A DNA stretch of 64,000 nucleotides, taken from assembly GCA_963748625.1 (NCBI GenBank), contig CAVVJT010000007.1, forward strand, positions 800,001 to 864,000. The letters run 5' to 3'. Source of the DNA: an uncultured Chloroflexia bacterium (lineage in GTDB: Bacteria; Chloroflexota; Limnocylindria; Limnocylindrales; CSP1-4). The translations under genes and the position numbers were made by a program. Below, one piece after another: positions 20,965 through 37,829 of this stretch. A model generated the notes under the pieces. It did not search any database and was not told the origin of the DNA. It saw only the letters and a program-made list of their open reading frames with translations. Numbering within the stretch: the first letter of the stretch is position 1; each line of letters starts with the position of its first letter.

Positions 20965-21678
20965 ATGTCGGCGTTCGTCATCGTTCACGGAGCTTGGGGC
21001 TCGCCAGCCGAGATGGAGCCGGTGGTTGCGCCGTTGGAATCGGCCGGCCACATCGCGATCACCGTCGACCTGCCCTGCGTCGATGCTGGGGCAACCTTGG
21101 AGCAGTACGCCGCTGCCGTGCGGGCCGTCCTCCCCGATGACCCGGCCGACGTCGTGCTGGTCGGTCACTCGTTCGGAGGCTTCACCGTTTCGACCATCGC
21201 CGCGGAACACGTTGGCATGTCGGTGGTGTACGTCGCGGCCTGGGTTCCGCAGCCGGGCGTATCGGTGATCGACCTCTTCCTGGGGCGCGATCCATTCGCG
21301 AACGGTGACCAGGATGCAGGAATCGCAGCCTTCGGCGGATTGGTCGCCAGTGCCGGCGCTGGTCTGTGTGCCCTGGACATCGACCAGCTGGTCGCCACGG
21401 TCGATCCGTCCAGGCAGGACGCGACCCGCTTGTATCTCGAGCAGACACAGCGTCCGCAGGGCATCGCCGCCCTGCGCGAGAAGTGGAGCGGCGATCTGCC
21501 GACCTCCGGCCGCCGCACCTACGTCGTGACCACCGCCGACACGCTGGTGCCGCCGGAGGCCCAACGGGCGATGGCCGCATCCGTAGGCGCTGATGTCGTT
21601 GAGATCGACACGGGTCACTCGCCCTTCGGCGAGCAGCCCACCCGCCTTGCCGAGCTGTTGGTCGCCGCCAGCCGCTGA
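20965..21678 (+). CDS. Alpha/beta hydrolase (Abhydrolase_6)
   Basis: VIVHGAW, LVGHSFGG, IDTGHSPF. Confidence 0.88.
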   Translation: MSAFVIVHGAWGSPAEMEPVVAPLESAGHIAITVDLPCVDAGATLEQYAAAVRAVLPDDPADVVLVGHSFGGFTVSTIAAEHVGMSVVYVAAWVPQPGVSVIDLFLGRDPFANGDQDAGIAAFGGLVASAGAGLCALDIDQLVATVDPSRQDATRLYLEQTQRPQGIAALREKWSGDLPTSGRRTYVVTTADTLVPPEAQRAMAASVGADVVEIDTGHSPFGEQPTRLAELLVAASR

Positions 21679-21754
21679 TCGTGCATTCCCCGCAAGCAGA
21701 CGGAGGATCCTGCAACGTGACCTCTCTCGCCCGCGCTCGCTCGCGGAATCAAGC

Positions 21755-22750
21755 ATGAAACTCGGCGCGCTGAACGAGGACATCGTCATCACGAGGTCCG
21801 GCTACACGTTGCCCTCGACGCTCTCGCTTCCGGCCAGCGATGGCGCCGCACCGTGCGTCGTGTTCTTCGCCGGGAGCGGGCCCACCGACCGCGACTGGAC
21901 ATCACCGCTGCTGCCGGGCAAGAACGGCAGCGGCGCGCAACTCGCGCTCGCGCTGCAGGCGCGGGGCGTCGGATCGATCCGCTTCGACAAGGTGGGCTCC
22001 GGCGTGAACATGCCGAGGAGCATGGCGCCCGCGGATCTGAAGATGCTCGATGTGCTGTCGCTCGCCCACTACGTCGACGAGGCTGTCGCCGCGTTCGACG
22101 AGCTCGCGAATCGTGACCGGTGCGGCACGATCTTCTTCCTCGGCCACAGCGAGGGATCGATCCACGCCTCGTCCGCGGCAATCGCGAAGCAGGCCGACCC
22201 TCGCTTCGGCGGCCTCATCAGCCTGTCCGGGCCCTCGCGATCGCTCCTCGACACGGCGATCGAACAGATCCGTGCGATGCGCATCAAGGTGGGGGCGGAC
22301 GCGGCCGTCGTGGACAGCGCGCTCGCGGACTTCCGCGCAGCCATGCTGAGCCCGGACGCACCGGCGCCCGACCTGTCCGCGATCCCCGAGGCCGCGGGCC
22401 TGTGGCAGGCGACCCATGCGCGAGGACAACAGGAGGTCGCGCGCGAGCTGATCCTCGCGGAGCCACTCGCGGCGCTGCACGCCTATCGCGGTCGCGCCCT
22501 CGTGGTCTCGGCTGCCAACGATGCCCAGGTACCCGGGTCCGATGCGGACAGGATCTTCGCGGCCCTGGGGAGCGACGTGACGAACAGGACGCGGGTGACG
22601 ATCGCCAACGCCAACCACGTCTACAAGTCGGAGACGCGGGCGCCGTCAGCGATCAGCCAGGGCGAGATCCTCGCTGGCTACGCGGACGACGACCACGCGC
22701 TTGCCGATGGTCTCGTCGACGCGATCGTGGGCTTCGTCACGGCGACGTAG
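21755..22750 (+). CDS. Alpha/beta hydrolase
   Basis: GSGPTDRD, RFDKVGSG, LGHSEG, D.QV, ANHV; start uncertain. Confidence 0.8.
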   Translation: MKLGALNEDIVITRSGYTLPSTLSLPASDGAAPCVVFFAGSGPTDRDWTSPLLPGKNGSGAQLALALQARGVGSIRFDKVGSGVNMPRSMAPADLKMLDVLSLAHYVDEAVAAFDELANRDRCGTIFFLGHSEGSIHASSAAIAKQADPRFGGLISLSGPSRSLLDTAIEQIRAMRIKVGADAAVVDSALADFRAAMLSPDAPAPDLSAIPEAAGLWQATHARGQQEVARELILAEPLAALHAYRGRALVVSAANDAQVPGSDADRIFAALGSDVTNRTRVTIANANHVYKSETRAPSAISQGEILAGYADDDHALADGLVDAIVGFVTAT

Positions 22751-22778
22751 TCGCGCGCCATCGGGTGGTGGAGGGATC

Positions 22779-22824
22779 TGGTCGGGGCGAGGGGGATCGA
22801 CCCGACGGAACCTACCTCATCGAC
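22779..22824 (-). repeat. att-like copy of the tRNA-Pro 3' end (distal boundary of the hotspot)
   Basis: TGGTCGGGGCGAG matches 36701-36713, followed by GAACCTACCTCATCGAC shared with the 35879 copy. Confidence 0.85.
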
Positions 22825-22931
22825 GCGCTGTGACCGTTCCTGGATCGTCGGCGGGTCCCCTCCAATGCACGGCGCGGGCTGCGGCGTCGGCGGAGAGGCC
22901 CGCGCGATGACCCTGGCCTCGATGCTGCGAG

Positions 22932-23122: not shown

Positions 23123-23470
23123 TCAACCTCGGCCGAGGACCACGTCGATGCCGGCCAGGACGAGCTCGAGGCTCGAGGCGGACAGGCGCCCGGTGCGCTC
23201 CGTCAAGGCGGCCCTGTCCAGGGTCACGATCTGGGACACGTTCGCGACCGACGGCTTCGTCAGGCCGGTAGCGCGGGCGGGCAGCAGCACGCTGCTCGGC
23301 GCGTCGGCCCACCGCGTGTTGCTGGTGAGGGCCACACAGACAACGGTCCGTAGGTTGCTCGCGTTGAAAGCGTCGCCCTGGACGACGACGACGGGGCGGC
23401 GGAAGCCAGGCTCGGAGCCCGCGGGGTCGGCGAGGTCCGCCAACCAGACCTCTCCCCGGGCGATTACCAC
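23123..23470 (-). CDS. mazF: PemK/MazF family toxin
   Basis: RGEVWLADL..P.GSEPGFRRPVVVVQ.D.FN...SVANVSQIVTLD. Confidence 0.9.
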   Translation of the reverse strand: MVIARGEVWLADLADPAGSEPGFRRPVVVVQGDAFNASNLRTVVCVALTSNTRWADAPSSVLLPARATGLTKPSVANVSQIVTLDRAALTERTGRLSASSLELVLAGIDVVLGRG

Positions 23471-24362: not shown

Positions 24363-24564
24363 TTGGTGAGCAAGAGCCCGACACACCTCGGCCCGAACCC
24401 CGACGGAACCGACCTCATCGGAATCGACCGGGTACCCCAGTGCGAGCGCCATCCCCAGGCTAGCCGAGCTACAGCGCGGTGAGGATCGCGAGCACTGACG
24501 GCACGATGAAGATGGCCACGAACGCGGCCGTCAGGAGGGGCTCGCCAACGCGGCGGATCATCCA

Positions 24565-24576
24565 CGGGGCGAGAGG
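24565..24576 (-). repeat. att core copy CGGGGCGAGAGG
   Basis: 12/12 match to 36705-36716. Confidence 0.6.
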
Positions 24577-24664
24577 CTTTGCGCCGAGACCAAGTACCAA
24601 CACGTGATCACGGCGTGGAACACACCGTGCGGGCGCCCGTGGCCGGTCCGGCCACCCGGCCTTG

Positions 24665-26437
24665 TCACCAGGGCCCTGAATCGAGCAACCTCATGAAGTT
24701 GCGCTTGCGTGCGTGGGCCGCCCGAACGCCCGCAAGGTACACCGGAAACACGTCACCGGATCCGGTTCTGTCCATCAGGTCCCGGATGTGTCCCAGCAGC
24801 TCGACCGCCGCCGCGTAGCCGTCGTTGGTCATCGTCTGCAGGAGGGCCTCCACCTCGCCCTGGTGGATGGGGATCGCGTCCGCAGGGTGGTCGATCTCCC
24901 GCCGTCGTGCCAGTTCCCGCCAGGCGGGCTCCGAACACCCCAGCGTCACGGCCTCCCGCCACGCGCTGTCCACGTCGCCCTCGAGCAGGAGCATCCGCAC
25001 GAGGGCGGTGCCATCCGCGGGGAGGTCCCAACGGTTCGCGGGTGGCCGGGCGTCCCGCTGCGCCTCGACAATGGACGCGCGAGCGGCGTCGAGGGCACGC
25101 GTCCGCCAGGCCGGCCACGCACCGGCGCGGCTCGCGTGGGCCCTGAGCGCGGCGAAGCCCTCGACGGTCGGCCGGACCTCGAACGGCGCCCAGGCGAGGG
25201 CGATCGCGTCGTCGTGGCGCCCCCGCTCGTGGTACCGGTCGGCCAGGAACTCGCGCAGGCGAGCGTCCGGCGGGTCCGGGAAGGCGCGGGTCCCCTGCTC
25301 GGCCCAGTCCAGCGCCTCCTCGTCCCGGCCGGCGTCCATGCACACCCGGGCGATGTCGAGGTACGCGTACGGGCTCGAGAGGTCGCGGGCCTTGACCGCG
25401 AGCAGCTCGTCGACGTCGCCGGTCGCCCGGGCGAGCGACTCCATGATCGAGGTGATCCGGAAGCGCCGGCCCTCGAATGACTGGCCGCCGCCGGATGCCG
25501 GACCCAGCGCCGGCACCCCGGCCCACACAGCCTCGGCCCGGCGCCGGTACTCCGCGAGGCCCGCCTCGCCGAGGACACCGGCATACACCTGCGCGGCGCC
25601 TGCGAACACGTCCCACCGGCCGTCGAGCTCCCAGGCGAAGAGGCGGCCGGCAAGCACGATCGGGTCCGGGCGTGCCACCTCGCACGCGGCCAGGTGCAGG
25701 TCCCCCACGCGCCCGAGGATGCCGCCCATCCCGCCGTCCGAGTCGTCGACGTGGTCCAGCGCGGCTTCGACACGCCGGAGGGCGTGCTCGGCGAGGTCGA
25801 TCACGGCGTCGGCCTGCCCGGCGCGCAGCAGGTCGTCGAGAAGGTCGATGGCATCGTGGATCCCCGACACGTAGCCGTACACGTCCGCGTAGCGGAGGTG
25901 GCGCGGGAGGCGGACCGCCTGGTCGATCGCCCGGCCGACCAGCGCGGCACCGGCGCCATCCGCCTCGGCCGCCGCCACGAGCAGCAGGAGGCGCTCGCGG
26001 AGCAGGTCGTCCCGCTCGGCCTGCGCGAGGACCAGGTCAACGAGGGCGTCGCGGTCCATCGCCGCGAGGTGGCTCCGGATGTCCTCGGTCGTGATCCTCG
26101 GCGGCCGGGCCCTCGCGCGGGCACGTGATCGGGAACCCGGGCCCTGGAGGCCCCTCGCCTGGCCAAGCCACGCGAGGCCGAGGGCGACCAGGTGCTTGCA
26201 GAAGGCGCCGGTCTCGCCCATCGGGCAGTCGCAGGTCCCGGTCAGGCCGTCGCTCCCGGCCGCGAGGACCACCCCGTAGTCGCGTGTGCCCTCGACGATC
26301 CCGGTGATGGCGGCGCCCTCCTCGGCGAGATCGGCCACGCGGCCCTCGTCCGCGTACTCGCGCCCGCGGACGAACGTGCGATCGCCGGCATGAAGGCGCA
26401 GGGCCTTGGGCGTGACGAGCTCCCGGAGGCTGCTCAT
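24665..26437 (-). CDS. SWIM zinc-finger protein with helical C-terminal domain
   Basis: GTCDCP.....FCKHLVA SWIM motif. Confidence 0.85.
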   Translation of the reverse strand: MSSLRELVTPKALRLHAGDRTFVRGREYADEGRVADLAEEGAAITGIVEGTRDYGVVLAAGSDGLTGTCDCPMGETGAFCKHLVALGLAWLGQARGLQGPGSRSRARARARPPRITTEDIRSHLAAMDRDALVDLVLAQAERDDLLRERLLLLVAAAEADGAGAALVGRAIDQAVRLPRHLRYADVYGYVSGIHDAIDLLDDLLRAGQADAVIDLAEHALRRVEAALDHVDDSDGGMGGILGRVGDLHLAACEVARPDPIVLAGRLFAWELDGRWDVFAGAAQVYAGVLGEAGLAEYRRRAEAVWAGVPALGPASGGGQSFEGRRFRITSIMESLARATGDVDELLAVKARDLSSPYAYLDIARVCMDAGRDEEALDWAEQGTRAFPDPPDARLREFLADRYHERGRHDDAIALAWAPFEVRPTVEGFAALRAHASRAGAWPAWRTRALDAARASIVEAQRDARPPANRWDLPADGTALVRMLLLEGDVDSAWREAVTLGCSEPAWRELARRREIDHPADAIPIHQGEVEALLQTMTNDGYAAAVELLGHIRDLMDRTGSGDVFPVYLAGVRAAHARKRNFMRLLDSGPW

Positions 26438-26486: not shown

Positions 26487-27383
26487 TCACGGTTGCCAGA
26501 TCCGGGTGGACGGGTCCCAGCGCAGACCCATCATGCCCGCGAGCACGGGCTCGAGGAATGCGATGAGCGCCGCGTGTGCCTCTCGCGTCGTCGGAGGGTC
26601 GAGCGCCATCTCCTTCCGCAGTGCCACGTACGGGCGGGCCCATGCCTCGGGTGGCTCCGTGAGCGCCGGCGGCCAGGCATGCGAGGCCCGACGCGCGAAG
26701 GTGGCCGTCGCGGCGTCGATGAGCGCATCGCTCGAGAACGCGTGGCGTTGCGCGAACCAGACCATGTCGGCGAGGTCCTTCGCCCGGGTGTTCTCGGTGT
26801 CGCGCGGGAGGGTGTAGGCGTGCAGCTTCTCCGCAAACTGCTGGGCGACCGGGTAGACCGGGAACCAGGCACGCTCGAACCCGAGGCGCTCGACGAGCGG
26901 GTCGCTCGGGTGGCGCTCGAGCGCGCCGGCCACCGCGTCCCGGGAGCTGATGTCCAGCTTGAAGCGCACGAGCTCGGCGCCGGCGACCCGGGCGACGACG
27001 ACGAACCGGAGGCCGCCGCCGGGCGGCCCGGGCAGGAGGCGCGGCGGGCCCGCCAGCTCATACGTGAAGGGGTCGTCGATGACGTGGCCGACGGCGGCCG
27101 CGATCATCCCGGCTGCCGTGTCGATGCCGGCGTCGATCCGCAGGTCCACGTCCTCGGTGAAGCGGGCCTCGCCCGGGTGCCGCAGCTGGTTCGCGTACCC
27201 GCCCTTGAGGACCCACGTCCCCCACGGTGTCGTCGCGAGCAGGCGCACGAGGAACCGGTCGATCGCGACCGTGAGGTGGACCCGCCGCACCGGCTCATCG
27301 CCCGCAGCGTCTCGGGCGACGTTGCGCATCCGCGCGAGGAGCGCCTGCCTCATGCCGAGCTCGGTGAGGCGCGGATCGGTCAC
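26487..27383 (-). CDS. abiEii: AbiEii/AbiGii nucleotidyltransferase toxin (type IV TA)
   Basis: WVLKGG, RFTEDVD, AEKLHAY, R.KDL.D; GTGA overlap with the antitoxin. Confidence 0.88.
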   Translation of the reverse strand: MTDPRLTELGMRQALLARMRNVARDAAGDEPVRRVHLTVAIDRFLVRLLATTPWGTWVLKGGYANQLRHPGEARFTEDVDLRIDAGIDTAAGMIAAAVGHVIDDPFTYELAGPPRLLPGPPGGGLRFVVVARVAGAELVRFKLDISSRDAVAGALERHPSDPLVERLGFERAWFPVYPVAQQFAEKLHAYTLPRDTENTRAKDLADMVWFAQRHAFSSDALIDAATATFARRASHAWPPALTEPPEAWARPYVALRKEMALDPPTTREAHAALIAFLEPVLAGMMGLRWDPSTRIWQP

Positions 27384-27928
27384 GGGCGCGCGGTCGTGAA
27401 CGGGTACAGGCGCCGCAGCCGCGCGATGTCGTCGGCCGTGAGCAGGGCGCGCTCGTGTCCCTCCGCGAACGCGGCCAGCAGCTGGTCCGGGTCGGTACCG
27501 CCCTTCGCGCAGTCGGCGAGCGTCCGGGCGAACGACGTCACCCATACGCCGTCGCGCAGCACGCGCTCGGCAGGGCCGATGGCCGAACGGTGGATCGTGT
27601 AGCCGGGGCGCGGCTTGAGGCCCGAGCCAGGCGGGACGGTGATGTGGACCGTGCGCGGCAGGACATCGCTGACGCCGTAGAGCTCGAGGGCCGTGTCGTG
27701 GCTGAACGTGGCGGACGGCGCCTGGACCGAGAACGCGTAGAAGCCGTCGAGGTGGCTCGCGGGTGTCCCGGCTAGGCGGTAGACGCCGTGGGCGACCCGC
27801 TCGACGAGCCCGCGCCGGGCGCGGTCCACGAGGGCCCGCCGGCTGATCCCGGCGGCGGCGGCCTGCGCGGTGCTGAAGTAGCCGTGCTGGGCGGCGGCAA
27901 GGTGGAGTAGATCACTCTCTGCCATCAC
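27380..27928 (-). CDS. abiEi: AbiEi family antitoxin
   Basis: QHGYFSTAQA..AG...LVERVAHGVYRL, SHDTAL, VTSFARTLAD. Confidence 0.88.
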   Translation of the reverse strand: MMAESDLLHLAAAQHGYFSTAQAAAAGISRRALVDRARRGLVERVAHGVYRLAGTPASHLDGFYAFSVQAPSATFSHDTALELYGVSDVLPRTVHITVPPGSGLKPRPGYTIHRSAIGPAERVLRDGVWVTSFARTLADCAKGGTDPDQLLAAFAEGHERALLTADDIARLRRLYPFTTARP

Positions 27929-27931
27929 CGA

Positions 27932-27960
27932 ATGTTACGCACCACGTAACAATTGGTCAA
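27932..27960 (-). promoter_or_regulatory. Sigma-70 promoter (probably leaderless) with overlapping inverted-repeat operator for abiE
   Basis: TTGACC-17 nt-TAACAT a few nt before GTG/ATG; TGTTACG-cacca-CGTAACA inverted repeat at 27933-27951. Confidence 0.7.
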
Positions 27961-28015
27961 GCTCTTCGCATTGACTACTTCACCCGTCATCCCTGACCGG
28001 CTCGACGTGACCGTT

Positions 28016-28473
<458 letters not shown>

Positions 28474-28504
28474 GGCATGGCCGATGATCCCGCCCACTGC
28501 CCGG

Positions 28505-28537
28505 CAACAAAGAGCCGGACCGCGGTGGTCCGGCTCT
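28505..28537 (-). terminator. Intrinsic terminator downstream of the att copy
   Basis: AGAGCCGGACC-accgc-GGTCCGGCTCT followed by TTGTT on the minus strand. Confidence 0.75.
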
Positions 28538-28548
28538 GGTGTGGAGAC

Positions 28549-28564
28549 TGGTCGGGGCGAGAGG
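28549..28564 (-). repeat. att-like copy of the tRNA-Pro 3' end
   Basis: TGGTCGGGGCGAGAGG, 16/16 match to 36701-36716. Confidence 0.9.
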
Positions 28565-28659
28565 GATAGCCCCTCCCTAACTCAGCGATCGCTCAGCTTC
28601 CTGATGGTCAACGCCACGCCGCGGCAGCCGCCGGTGCCCCTCGAGCTGGTCCGCAGCGC

Positions 28660-28905
28660 ATGACGCGACGGTCGTCCCGCTCCGCCGAGCGCGCCACCGA
28701 CCGCGAGGTCGGGGTGGTCGCGGCCGTCCTGGTCGCCGGGTCGGAGAAGGCCGCCGCCCACCGCCTCGGCCTGTCGCCCTCGACGGTGAAGCACCACCTG
28801 GCGAATGCGCGGTCCAAGGTGGGGGCGACGACGACGGCGCAGCTGGTGTGGATCCTCGCTCCTCGGTTGCCCGAGCCGGAGGGCATGGCCCAAACGGACG
28901 AATGA
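28660..28905 (+). CDS. Small stand-alone LuxR/sigma4-type HTH protein (full-length copy 1)
   Basis: TDREVGVVAAV..AGSEKAAAHRLGLSPSTVKHHLANARSKVG. Confidence 0.8.
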   Translation: MTRRSSRSAERATDREVGVVAAVLVAGSEKAAAHRLGLSPSTVKHHLANARSKVGATTTAQLVWILAPRLPEPEGMAQTDE

Positions 28906-29066
28906 CGGCAGCTCGAGGCGCGGTCGCGCTATCGGGACCGCGCGAACCAGTCGTAGATCGACGCGGGGCCGTTGTAGACGCCGCCAGCCCGAGTCCGCTG
29001 ACGGGTGACTTCTCGAGACCGGCGGCAAGAGTCGCTCAACTGTTGGTGACCCGTGTACAGGGTCCG

Positions 29067-30106: not shown

Positions 30107-30234
30107 CCTCGACCGTGAAGCACCACCTGGCGAACGCGCGGTCCAAGGTGGGCGCGGAGACGACGGCGCAGCCGGTGTGGATCCTGGCGCCGCGGCTGCC
30201 CGAGCCCGAGGGTGTGGCCGAAGCGGACGAGTAG
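30107..30234 (+). pseudogene. 5'-truncated HTH copy 2
   Basis: STVKHHLANARSKVGAETTAQPVWILAPRLPEPEGVAEADE*. Confidence 0.85.
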
Positions 30235-31006: not shown

Positions 31007-31177
31007 CGCCGGGTCGGAGAAGGCCGCGGCCCACCGCCTGGGCTTGTCGCACTCGACCGTGAAGCACCACCTGCGAATGCGCGGTCCAAGGTGGGCGCAG
31101 CCACGACGGCGCAACTGGTGTGGATCCTCGCCCCGCGCCTGCCCGAGCCCGAGGGCGTGGTCCAGACGGACGACTAA
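31007..31177 (+). pseudogene. 5'-truncated HTH copy 3 (1-bp deletion)
   Basis: AGSEKAAAHRLGLSHSTVKHHL/..NARSKVGAATTAQLVWILAPRLPEPEGVVQTDD*. Confidence 0.85.
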
Positions 31178-33736: not shown

Positions 33737-33999
33737 GGGACGGGTACCTGCGCGGCTCGATCCCACGGACGCCGACGGCACGGCAGGTCGACGTCCTGGC
33801 CGCCTTCGTCGCCAGCGGCGGTTCCGTCGCGGATGCGGCCGCGCGGGTCGGCGTCCGGCCCAGCACCGCGAAGCGCCACCTCGCCGATCTGCGGGCCCGG
33901 TCGGGCCTCACGACCGAGCAACTGATCTACCGGGGGCGGGCGGAGGGGTGGCTGGTGGTCGCGAGCCTGGAACCAACGCTGGCCTTCGATCACCAGTGA
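33733..33999 (+). CDS. Second small stand-alone LuxR-type HTH protein
   Basis: PTARQVDVLAAF...SVADAAARVGVRPSTAKRHLADLR; GTGA overlap. Confidence 0.75.
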   Translation: MRDGYLRGSIPRTPTARQVDVLAAFVASGGSVADAAARVGVRPSTAKRHLADLRARSGLTTEQLIYRGRAEGWLVVASLEPTLAFDHQ

Positions 34000-35780: not shown

Positions 35781-35878
35781 CACCCGAGGGTCCCGCCCGG
35801 CGCCGGACCGACCCGATCGCCGCAGAGTTGGGACGCGGCCTTCGGGGCTGGGGACCAGCCAATCTCGATTGGTCAGCC

Positions 35879-35924
35879 TGGTCGGGGCGAGAGGGCTTGA
35901 CCCCGCAGAACCTACCTCATCGAC
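35879..35924 (-). repeat. att-like copy of the tRNA-Pro 3' end
   Basis: 16/16 core match plus GAACCTACCTCATCGAC shared with the 22779 copy. Confidence 0.9.
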
Positions 35925-35930
35925 TTGGGC

Positions 35931-36272
35931 TCAGCCGGAGGCGAGGAGTTCGTCCACCTCGCGACGCAGGTCCCCGAGCCGGGTGCCGACCATATCCCAC
36001 ACCAGCATGTCGTCGACGCCGGCGTAGCCGTGGATCAGGATGTTGCGGAACGCGATGATGCGCCGATGGTCGCTGATCCGGCCGGCGGTCTCCGGGTCGA
36101 CCTTCGCCAGCTGGCCGAGCGCCTCGCCGATGACCTCGAACTGGCGCTCGACCGCGGACCGCACCATCGCATCGGCGGCGTACGTGTCGTAGTCCAGGCC
36201 GGTGGTGAAGTCCGCGATCAGCGCGGCGGCCTGCCGCATGTCATAGAGGTAGGCCTTTGCCTCACGCGGCAT
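35931..36272 (-). CDS. HEPN (DUF86/HepT-like) RNase toxin
   Basis: AVERQFEVIGEA, RNILIH (Rx4H) followed by GY. Confidence 0.9.
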   Translation of the reverse strand: MPREAKAYLYDMRQAAALIADFTTGLDYDTYAADAMVRSAVERQFEVIGEALGQLAKVDPETAGRISDHRRIIAFRNILIHGYAGVDDMLVWDMVGTRLGDLRREVDELLASG

Positions 36273-36570
36273 AGAGCAGCGTCCTTGTCCGCTCGATATC
36301 GGCCTTGATGTACGGGTTGCGGACGGCCGAGGAGGCCACGAGGTCAACCTGGCGGCCGAAGAGAGCCTCAAGCGCTTCGCGGAGGCCAAAGTAGGCGTCC
36401 GCGTACCCGCCCACCGGCAGCGCCTCGAACTCGACGAGCAGATCGACGTCGCTCCGTTCGGGATCGAAGTCCTCTCGGGCGGCCGACCCGAACACGAACA
36501 AGCTGTGCACGCGGTACCGTCGGCACAGATCCTCGAGTGCGGCACGGTGGTCGTCGATAAACGGGCTCAT
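36262..36570 (-). CDS. Minimal nucleotidyltransferase (MNT) antitoxin
   Basis: [20 protein letters not shown] (GSx10DxD-type motif). Confidence 0.9.
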
Positions 36571-36651
36571 GTCGGTGGCTCCTCGCTCGAAGAGTACCCG
36601 AGGCCGGATCCCACGACGACGGCTGGCGATGCGCGGCAGCGAGACACGAAG

Positions 36652-36678
36652 GAGCCCTCCTCGCCACGAGAAGGGCTC
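36652..36678 (-). terminator. Hairpin downstream of the tRNA
   Basis: GAGCCCTcCTCG / CGAGaAGGGCTC inverted repeat. Confidence 0.5.
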
Positions 36679-36700
36679 TGGACCGGATGACAGCTGGATC

Positions 36701-36777
<77 letters not shown>

Positions 36778-36947: not shown

Positions 36948-37829
36948 CTACTGGGCCTCAGGTGCGACACAGGTCCAGCGCATCGTGAGCTCGAAGGTCG
37001 GCGGCCAGGGGTCGTTCGGGATCTCGAGGTTGACGTAGGTCAGTCCGGAGCCGCCATACGGGTCTGCGAAGCGGGTGCCCTGGATGCGCGCGCTGCCCGA
37101 CAGGCCCGTCTCGGTGAGCTCCATCACCCGGTAGTCATAGACCCCCAGGAATGAGAGCGGAGGCTCGGCGAGGGTGGCCCCGTCCGGCGCGGTGTACTCC
37201 AGGTAGGGGGCGGGCCGCTCCGGGACGTTCGGGGGCTCGAACGAGGGCCGGGGCTGGTCAGGCTGTGATGCGAGCGCGGGTGCTGGGGCGGCCCAGGTGT
37301 AGGTCTCGCCCGTTGCCACGTTCCGCAGGTCGAGCATCGGCACGCCATTGGCCCGCGGGTTGACGACTGCCACCGAGTCGGGGTCGCCGACGACCGGACG
37401 ACAGCTGACCGGCACGTCCACAGTCGAGCTGAGGGGCGGGCCAAACGCCAGCCGGACCGTGCCGCCGTAGGTGGGCGAACCACTTCCGGCAGCGACGGTT
37501 GCGGCGCCCACGGAGTAGGCGACCCAGCCCGCGACGAAGACCAGGCTCCAGCGCCACGGCGAAGGGCGGCCCCCCGAGTTCGGCGATTCGTCGGGACGGC
37601 GGCGGGCGGAGTAGACAAGGATGACGAGCGCGCCCGCGAGGGTCAGCACAGCCCCGATGCCCATGGACCAGCCGGGGGCCGGGCGCCCCAGGAACGGGTC
37701 GGCGAGACCCGCCAGCTGGTAGCGCATGTCGATCGTGGCCTGGTGGAAGGCGAACGCGCCAATGCCGAGGGCCACGAGCACGATCAGGACGTCTGCCCCG
37801 CTGACCCGGAGTCCGCGGTCCGCCATCAC
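36948..37829 (-). CDS. Hypothetical three-TM membrane protein
   Basis: Three hydrophobic segments then a soluble domain. Confidence 0.65.

Follow-up and report, generated by a model that had tools for sequence, protein, structure and literature searches.

In the model serine integrases, the attachment (att) sites lie beside the integrase gene, not inside it, and the targets are usually protein genes. Sites placed within a gene that integration then alters are described for other systems. The integrase of myxophage Mx8 has attP inside its coding sequence, and integration yields a new 3′ end and a changed C-terminus (PMC6070905). In mycobacteriophage BPs, integration removes 33 C-terminal residues of the repressor, the lost tail is a degradation tag, and clusters G, I, N and P share this integration-dependent immunity (PMC4557955). 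SSV1-type "suicidal" archaeal integrases have the target within their own gene, which is fragmented on integration (PMC8371274). Here we consider a 64,000-nt stretch of DNA from an uncultured Chloroflexia bacterium (positions 800,001–864,000 of contig CAVVJT010000007.1, G+C approximately 71%; "the window" below), and in particular its segment 28549–28662. This segment is very probably the attL junction of a decayed temperate phage whose large serine recombinase (LSR) carried attP in the end of its own gene and targeted a tRNA-Pro(CGG) gene. A preliminary description of this DNA had proposed a parental element with attP in the recombinase 3′ end; the proposal is supported by sequences of relatives, not by the window, within which, taken alone, the feature is only a fossil. 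A literature search, with most subscription journals outside its scope, returned no description of a tRNA-targeting serine integrase whose own 3′ end holds attP.

The core of the sites discussed here comprises the last 16 nt of tRNA-Pro, whose antisense on the plus strand of the window reads TGGTCGGGGCGAGAGG. Scanning IMG/VR for this 16-mer yielded one high-G+C contig, and its LSR was then used as a query, giving a set of 10 IMG/VR contigs with LSRs 73–100% identical to the first found. The first contig is a 26-kb, siphovirus-like record with all genes on one strand, in which a 514-codon open reading frame (ORF; G+C at third codon positions 0.86) crosses the core in the frame that reads GRGER. 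Its product matches Pfam Resolvase over residues 20–160 (36.8 bits vs. a cut-off of 23.3, E 5e-9) and the PHROGs integrase family phrog_95 over residues 13–453 (1.9e-37). RusA and other genes precede the LSR gene, which is followed by genes for a 70-aa helix-turn-helix (HTH) protein, holin, large terminase, portal, major head protein, and tape measure protein.

An LSR ORF of approximately 510 aa crosses the core in the GRGER frame in 7 of the 10 contigs, with 27–33 more codons after the core; we refer to these seven as attP forms. Among the remaining contigs, two have an LSR that ends GRGERI* in tRNA-Pro (asterisks denote stops) and one an LSR that ends GRGERT*. Two of the seven attP-form records, of 42,230 and 41,063 nt, contain one core each and end in direct terminal repeats, which identifies them as complete free phage genomes. 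The overlap of recombinase gene and att site on which the earlier proposal depended is therefore present, in this related DNA, in seven of seven attP forms, the two complete genomes included. In all seven, the LSR stop is followed at a distance of −1 to +5 nt by the next start codon, and in five of them the gene after the LSR codes for a 70–86-aa LuxR-type HTH protein. Two motifs are invariant in the seven phage LSRs: R21-E22-S23-T24..Q27, belonging to a resolvase domain seen in relatives and not in the window, and G476-Y-G-R-G-E-R482, whose codons double as the tRNA end.

The geometry of these sites is informative about the type of enzyme that uses them. The best 12-nt inverted repeat of each attP form (9–11 of 12 positions, arms 30–38 nt apart) brackets the core, with its centre of symmetry between core nt 15 and 16 in every one of the seven. 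Among approximately 100 scars (decayed junctions) in 13 genomes, sequence identity ends exactly at core nt 16. A centre of symmetry here, together with identity ending at nt 16, is what is expected of a serine integrase whose site has GG as its central dinucleotide, and would place the crossover at the terminal GG of the core. Like the integrases of phiC31, Bxb1, A118/LI, and SPbeta, the enzyme is phage-borne, has approximately 500 aa and an N-terminal resolvase domain, and has short palindromic att sites without arm sites. Recombination between attP and attB by the LSR would be visible here only in its products, namely the free form, attL, and attR.

An integrated element with both ends preserved is found in G052. 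Its LSR gene (phrog_95, 5.4e-43) counts 534 codons in frame and terminates within tRNA-Pro as ...SASAGYGRGERI*, with the last codons, ATT TGA, contributed by the tRNA T-loop (...GYGRGERI*). A second core lies 47.9 kb away, followed by a 29-codon tail, GRGERARTSGIRQIRGCRVSMGGRRVPLALVRSA*, an overlapping ATG, and a gene for a 126-aa HTH protein (phrog "late transcriptional activator", E 4e-5). Beyond the HTH gene come genes for terminase, portal, head protease/major capsid protein, tape measure, and SbcC-like and ParB-like proteins. The half-sites of the two ends co-vary, ATCTGCCGG pairing with CCGGCAGAT. It had been predicted that integration exchanges a longer tail for GRGERI*, that recombinases with this ending would be found next to tRNA-Pro, and that the far end of such elements would carry the tail plus the HTH gene. 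The ending is present in G052, in 13 of the 62 locus rows described below and in 2 of the 10 viral contigs, and the 48-kb G052 prophage shows the anticipated far end of core, tail and HTH gene. Collinearity of this prophage with phage G086, the first phage found, was considered and rejected, as it is confined to the recombinase gene; the prophage is a different phage with the same integrase type.

The same arrangement recurs throughout the genus. The phage LSR matches 50 of 70 genus genomes, and many of the matches are full-length or truncated genes ending at a core. We compiled 62 LSR locus rows, 12 from the genus search and 50 from a wider contig search, with at least 4 places in both sets. 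A frame of at least 250 codons runs into the core in 43 rows, 6 have a core without a long frame, and 13 have no core in the stretch examined. The GRGER register is used by 38 frames, 13 of which run into a whole tRNA; these 13 represent 12 distinct places, and a contig end truncates one of them. A second LSR subfamily (9 frames) crosses the core in a different register (VGARG...) and, once integrated, stops only after traversing the full length of the tRNA-Pro gene in antisense; L197, L199, L238, and L241 are among its examples, as is G016:C6:370273-371760. The exact 16-mer core is present in 60 of the 70 genomes, with up to 26 copies per genome (G051, a fragmented metagenome-assembled genome), whereas the reversed 16-mer, used as a control, occurs in none of the 70. 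The tRNA-Pro scar arrays of the genus, which lie downstream of the tRNA gene, hold 8–16 cores over 34–70 kb, all in one orientation (for example, G063:C5:1147444-1217499, G016:C7:9017-61964, and G059:C1:3954467-3988700). Cores often lie approximately 105–125 nt from contig ends, which indicates that these repeats break short-read assemblies.

Free phages, integrated prophages, and scars alike show this site anatomy, which suggests the following course of events. The attP site lies within the last ~37–40 codons of the LSR gene, the ...G-Y-G-R-G-E-R codons being the last 16 nt of tRNA-Pro in antisense, and forms an imperfect palindrome of approximately 55 bp centred on the last two G of the core. 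On integration, the phage copy of the 16 nt would become the new tRNA 3′ end, and the LSR gene would be left reading into the tRNA, where the T-loop would supply ATT TGA (...GRGERI*). The old tRNA end, the phage half-site, the last 27–33 LSR codons, and the next gene would move to the other end of the prophage; the gene so moved would usually be the small LuxR-type HTH gene that heads the packaging and structural genes. Reinsertion at the restored tRNA, combined with decay of older prophages, would then stack scars of core, orphan tail, and HTH gene downstream of the tRNA; we infer the order of these insertion events. Such a history would explain a hypervariable tRNA-Pro island, with up to 26 scars per genome, that gathers toxin–antitoxin and defence genes, and the att match links uncultured IMG/VR phages, complete genomes among them, to uncultured Chloroflexota (Limnocylindrales-like) hosts.

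Returning to the window, tRNA-Pro(CGG) is its sole tRNA gene (ARAGORN). The additional cores, at 35879, 28549, and 22779, and two weaker fragments all lie downstream of it in one orientation (Table 1). The 15-mer occurs six times with at most one mismatch in the whole 4.6-Mb genome, and four of these occurrences fall within a 14-kb stretch of the window, so that the cores are clustered near tRNA-Pro beyond chance. The homology of scar 2 (28549–28662) with 16 other copies starts exactly at the left edge of the core, and it is therefore read as an attL junction. The family to which its tail belongs is joined to a 444-codon recombinase frame in G061 (tblastn, 73% over 26 aa, E 4e-6) and to a 360-codon recombinase frame in L248. 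The stop of the frame from 28550 overlaps the ATG of the HTH gene (ATGA), and the HTH protein is 41% identical (E 4e-17) to that encoded after the recombinase in phage contig L264. Further copies of the HTH gene, at 30109, 31008, and 33775, suggest additional junctions whose cores are gone; that at 30109..30231 probably derives from an older scar with a lost core.

Table 1. Coordinates of the tRNA-Pro gene, cores, scars, and neighbouring genes in the window
Feature	Position	Strand	Evidence or remark
tRNA-Pro(CGG), live attachment target	36701..36777	-	ARAGORN; Rfam tRNA 63.3 bits
Core inside tRNA-Pro itself	36701-36716	+	reads GRGERI* from 36702
HepT-like toxin gene (35931-36545) plus candidate upstream MNT partner	35931..36732	-	Pfam HepT-like 1.7e-19
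Scar 1: P arm, exact core (35879-35894), then diverged tRNA-like P′ arm	35829..35925	+	
Fourth HTH copy, distant	33775..33930	+	47% identity; tblastn E 1.7e-8
Third HTH copy, frameshifted (residues 26-81)	31008..31174	+	tblastn, two pieces, E 3e-21
Second HTH copy, fragment (residues 41-81)	30109..30231	+	tblastn 88% identity, E 8e-21
LuxR/GerE-type HTH gene, 81 aa	28660..28905	+	Pfam GerE 4.9e-7
Scar 2, phage-side (P′) arm: orphaned last 32 codons of serine recombinase gene	28565..28662	+	DSPSLTQ...ELVRSA*
Scar 2, core: exact copy of last 16 nt of tRNA-Pro	28549..28564	+	displaced old 3′ end
Scar 2, host-side (B) arm: hairpin 12 nt past displaced tRNA end	28511..28537	-	11-bp stem, 5-nt loop, then UUGUUG
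AbiEii + AbiEi	26487-27928		Pfam
SWIM/DUF6880 protein	24665-26437		Pfam
Degenerate partial core (16/17 nt), then P′-arm-like sequence; weak scar	24565..24581	+	blastn E 0.07
P′-arm fragment CCCGACGGAACCGACCTCATCG without core	24398..24425	+	resembles arm at 22795-22830
MazF	23123-23470		Pfam
Outermost recognisable scar: core (22779-22794, 1 mismatch) and tRNA-like P′ arm	22779..22830	+	

The hairpin on the host side of scar 2 has a fold of -26.4 kcal/mol (z -3.4) and resembles the original terminator of the tRNA-Pro gene, although a consensus terminator scan did not list it; the same flank family also adjoins cores in G019, G016, G073, and G015. In scar 1, the P arm is a serine recombinase 3′ end of ~15 codons, matching, over 35829-35927, residues 503–532 of a G085-type recombinase (tblastn E 0.002), and the P′ arm stops at once (GRGERA*). 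The outermost scar is 87% identical to scar 1 across 47 nt, and a 12-nt piece of the antisense tRNA-Pro end lies at 24409-24420 on the plus strand. An Rfam search up to E 10 called no scar as a tRNA fragment, and when the flanks that border the outermost scars in six relatives were searched for in this genome, no ancestral flank emerged.

All of the translations given in the preliminary description reproduce exactly: on the plus strand, 28550 reads GRGERDSPSLTQRSLSFLMVNATPRQPPVPLELVRSA*, 22780 GRGEGDRPDGTYLIDAL*, 24565 RGERLCAETKYQHVITAWNTP, 24399 PDGTDLI, 35880 GRGERA*PRRTYLID, and 36702 GRGERI*. The statement that the scars share one plus-strand frame holds for their register relative to the repeat and not for the absolute frames, which differ. 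The shared GRGER is no evidence in itself, since identical DNA must translate alike.

The parallel with Mx8 and the SSV-type integrases that was drawn at the outset stands for the position of attP in the integrase gene and falls for the enzyme, which here is a large serine recombinase and not a tyrosine integrase. With Mx8 the locus shares an attP core in the integrase ORF and a prophage integrase that gains a new C-terminus; unlike Mx8 Int, a tyrosine recombinase, the enzyme here has a resolvase domain and no Phage_integrase domain, and the overlap takes in only the last ~37 codons, which double as the tRNA 3′ end. The SSV tyrosine enzymes are split into N- and C-terminal halves and the gene is inactivated, whereas here only residues past 482 of ~510 are exchanged and the phrog-matching residues 13–453 stay intact. 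The lost tail is of similar size to that of BPs (27–33 codons here), but in BPs, which has a tyrosine integrase, it is the repressor that is split, whereas here the integrase itself is split and the HTH gene remains whole. In the tycheposon islands of Prochlorococcus, repeats of partial tRNA 3′ ends reportedly delimit insertions made one after another on the downstream side of a tRNA gene; the present elements differ from these in being tailed phages with complete genomes, in their 3–5-Mb Chloroflexota hosts, and in their tRNA-Pro(CGG) target.

This arrangement extends the placing of an attachment site in the element's own gene (Mx8, SSV; the BPs repressor) to large serine integrases at a tRNA gene, where a 16-nt stretch must serve as integrase codons and tRNA 3′ end alike. 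With approximately 50 natural variants, so compact and self-contained a site is of interest for serine-integrase engineering, and it offers a testable case of integration-dependent gene rewiring. Whether the overlap is itself a wiring device, and not an accident, with tail swap and late-gene uncoupling upon integration, is a separate claim that we hold to be doubtful. Exchange of the tail for a single Ile could change the stability or directionality of the integrase, by analogy with Mx8 IntX and the BPs repressor tag. In the circular phage genome, the tailed integrase is stop–start coupled to a small HTH or sigma-like activator at the head of the late genes. Integration may sever this activator and the late genes from the early/integrase transcript, and the late genes could then fire only once excision has reunited the two parts. 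Such a switch, if real, would be the first of the integration-dependent type to use a serine integrase, and an example of codons doubling as a tRNA 3′ end.

Several observations weigh against the phage-decay interpretation of the window. There is no LSR gene or sizeable LSR fragment in the window, only the end piece of approximately 30 residues in scar 1 (tblastn), and Pfam finds no Phage_integrase or Resolvase domain there; an LSR protein search of the organism's own genome gives a sole match, at C8:27389-28792. With no LSR body in the window, the reading of its scars rests on approximately 100 nt of homology and the HTH gene. The SRPBCC, NMO, SnoaL, and TetR genes that also lie between the window scars are not phage-like. 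For the phage enzyme, the Pfam Recombinase match (19.8 bits) is under the 21.1 cut-off, phmmer of the LSR against the PDB gave no match, and an AlphaFold2 model from a seven-sequence alignment has a mean predicted local distance difference test score of 46.9, at which the domains and any disorder of the tail are unreadable. A non-HTH gene follows the LSR in two of the seven free phages, and the G052 HTH is unrelated in sequence to that of the window. Finally, 17 decayed tails (from 30 fetched loci, 13 of which were dropped by requiring a match of at least 85 nt) have no third-position excess, with 12/13/18 and 10/16/17 at codon positions 1/2/3, and three of them have frame-breaking indels; the signal in intact phage tails (below) is small, at 24 substitutions, and overlaps a DNA half-site that is itself constrained.

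The strongest competing explanation is that the scars are junctions of small cassettes, moved singly by a recombinase acting in trans, in the manner of an integron or a cis-mobilizable element (CIME). The very short segments between some cores would suit it well (0.8 kb holding HepT/MNT in the window; 157–1300 nt in G016, G059, and G063), as would the different combinations of left- and right-flank families among genomes, the 12–15-core arrays that extend over 50–70 kb with few intact recombinase genes, and a cargo made up mainly of toxin–antitoxin, defence, and regulator genes. Many left flanks are, however, LSR 3′ ends at every stage of truncation, as expected of phages that decayed where they had inserted; the same sites are present in complete phages and in a complete prophage, and neither a circular cassette nor an attP form made up of a cassette alone was seen. 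We judge cassette movement unlikely to be the origin of the scars, while noting that it and phage decay are compatible and not exclusive. The idea of an integrase-less, integron-like array was abandoned once an ORF for a serine recombinase proved to run across the core in a viral contig; near the arrays of 16 genomes there is no tyrosine recombinase, and the joints are tRNA 3′ ends with LSR half-sites, unlike an integron, in which an IntI tyrosine recombinase sits beside attI and attC sites bound the cassettes.

A second alternative concerns the tail itself. The preliminary description had looked to codon-level conservation of the tails, which proves absent in decayed copies like that of the window and present, modestly, in intact phages. 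The HTH gene that adjoins the decayed tails has a strong third-position excess (11/16/52). Among intact phages, four close relatives have 3/7/14 substitutions in the tail vs. 12/12/41 in the LSR body, and all seven together have 18/22/26 in the tail. The tail is thus probably translated in the phage, and that of the window is a dead remnant, not a gene. The frame running from 28484 (or from a GTG at 28541) to 28662 might instead be taken for a small gene that is still live, or for an upstream ORF, in translational coupling with the HTH gene, given that it is open from the ATG at 28484, that its stop overlaps the HTH start, and that 13 of the 17 family copies retain the ...SA* stop on the start codon. 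The lack of a third-position excess next to a gene that has a strong one, and the indels in 3 of 17 copies, speak against this. No two genomes agree in what precedes the core, leaving no common N-terminus or start, and the upstream part of the frame traverses the hairpin. A live gene here is, in our judgement, very improbable.

Least tenable, to the point of being nearly dismissible, is the notion that the repeats are attL and attR of tyrosine-integrase islands crossing over in the T-loop of tRNA-Pro, with the LSR link a coincidence: a 16–17-nt identity block up to the tRNA 3′ end is reportedly what T-loop-type tyrosine integrases leave (Williams, in 2002, is said to have noted this) and would fit, but in 16 genomes (this one and 15 relatives) the arrays and their surroundings are free of Phage_integrase domains, 43 of the 62 locus rows and 10 of 10 viral loci have a serine recombinase ORF entering the core, and the symmetry centre sits at the end of the identity block, where the central dinucleotide of a serine integrase is expected.

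Three toxin–antitoxin or abortive-infection modules lie between the scars of the window, namely MazF, AbiEii/AbiEi, and the HepT-like gene, which with its candidate MNT partner occupies the 0.8 kb from the tRNA to the nearest scar. Arrays of relatives carry RHH-MazF, Fic, a DUF4143 ATPase, STAND/LuxR regulators, and an M78 peptidase. The ORF at 21593-22750 was considered as an integrase on account of its position and size and was rejected, as it is an alpha/beta hydrolase that ends 28 nt before the scar at 22779. The hydrolase (22000-22767) is 92% identical to a gene inside the G016 arrays and 82% identical to one in G067; with such homologues inside other arrays, the array of the window may extend to the left of 22779. 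On the other side, a 293-aa ORF without a Pfam match (36948-37829) separates the tRNA from the TerC gene; G016, the closest relative, lacks this ORF and has the tRNA directly next to TerC.

Within the tail family of scar 2, a 27-nt block, cttcctgatggtcaacgccacgccgcg (28601-28627 in the window), is near-invariant in nine copies; it sits past the expected recombinase half-site, and its invariance may reflect recent common descent. To the left of scar 2, at a distance of 75 nt, the 455 nt at 28020-28474 consist solely of A and T bar three bases, the first ~70 being A. This is the only A/T-only run of at least 30 nt in the 4.6-Mb assembly and probably reflects an artefact, of assembly or of reads, at a join; among sequencing runs searched for words of 27500-29000, none reaches one fifth, the best share being 0.17. 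Some 7–8 kb beyond the end of the window, at 871368-872442 of the contig, lies a tyrosine integrase gene, approximately 490 nt downstream of another tRNA gene, which is itself syntenic in relatives. This is a separate integration site with a different type of enzyme, and the same pairing of tRNA and tyrosine integrase is found in G005 and G009.

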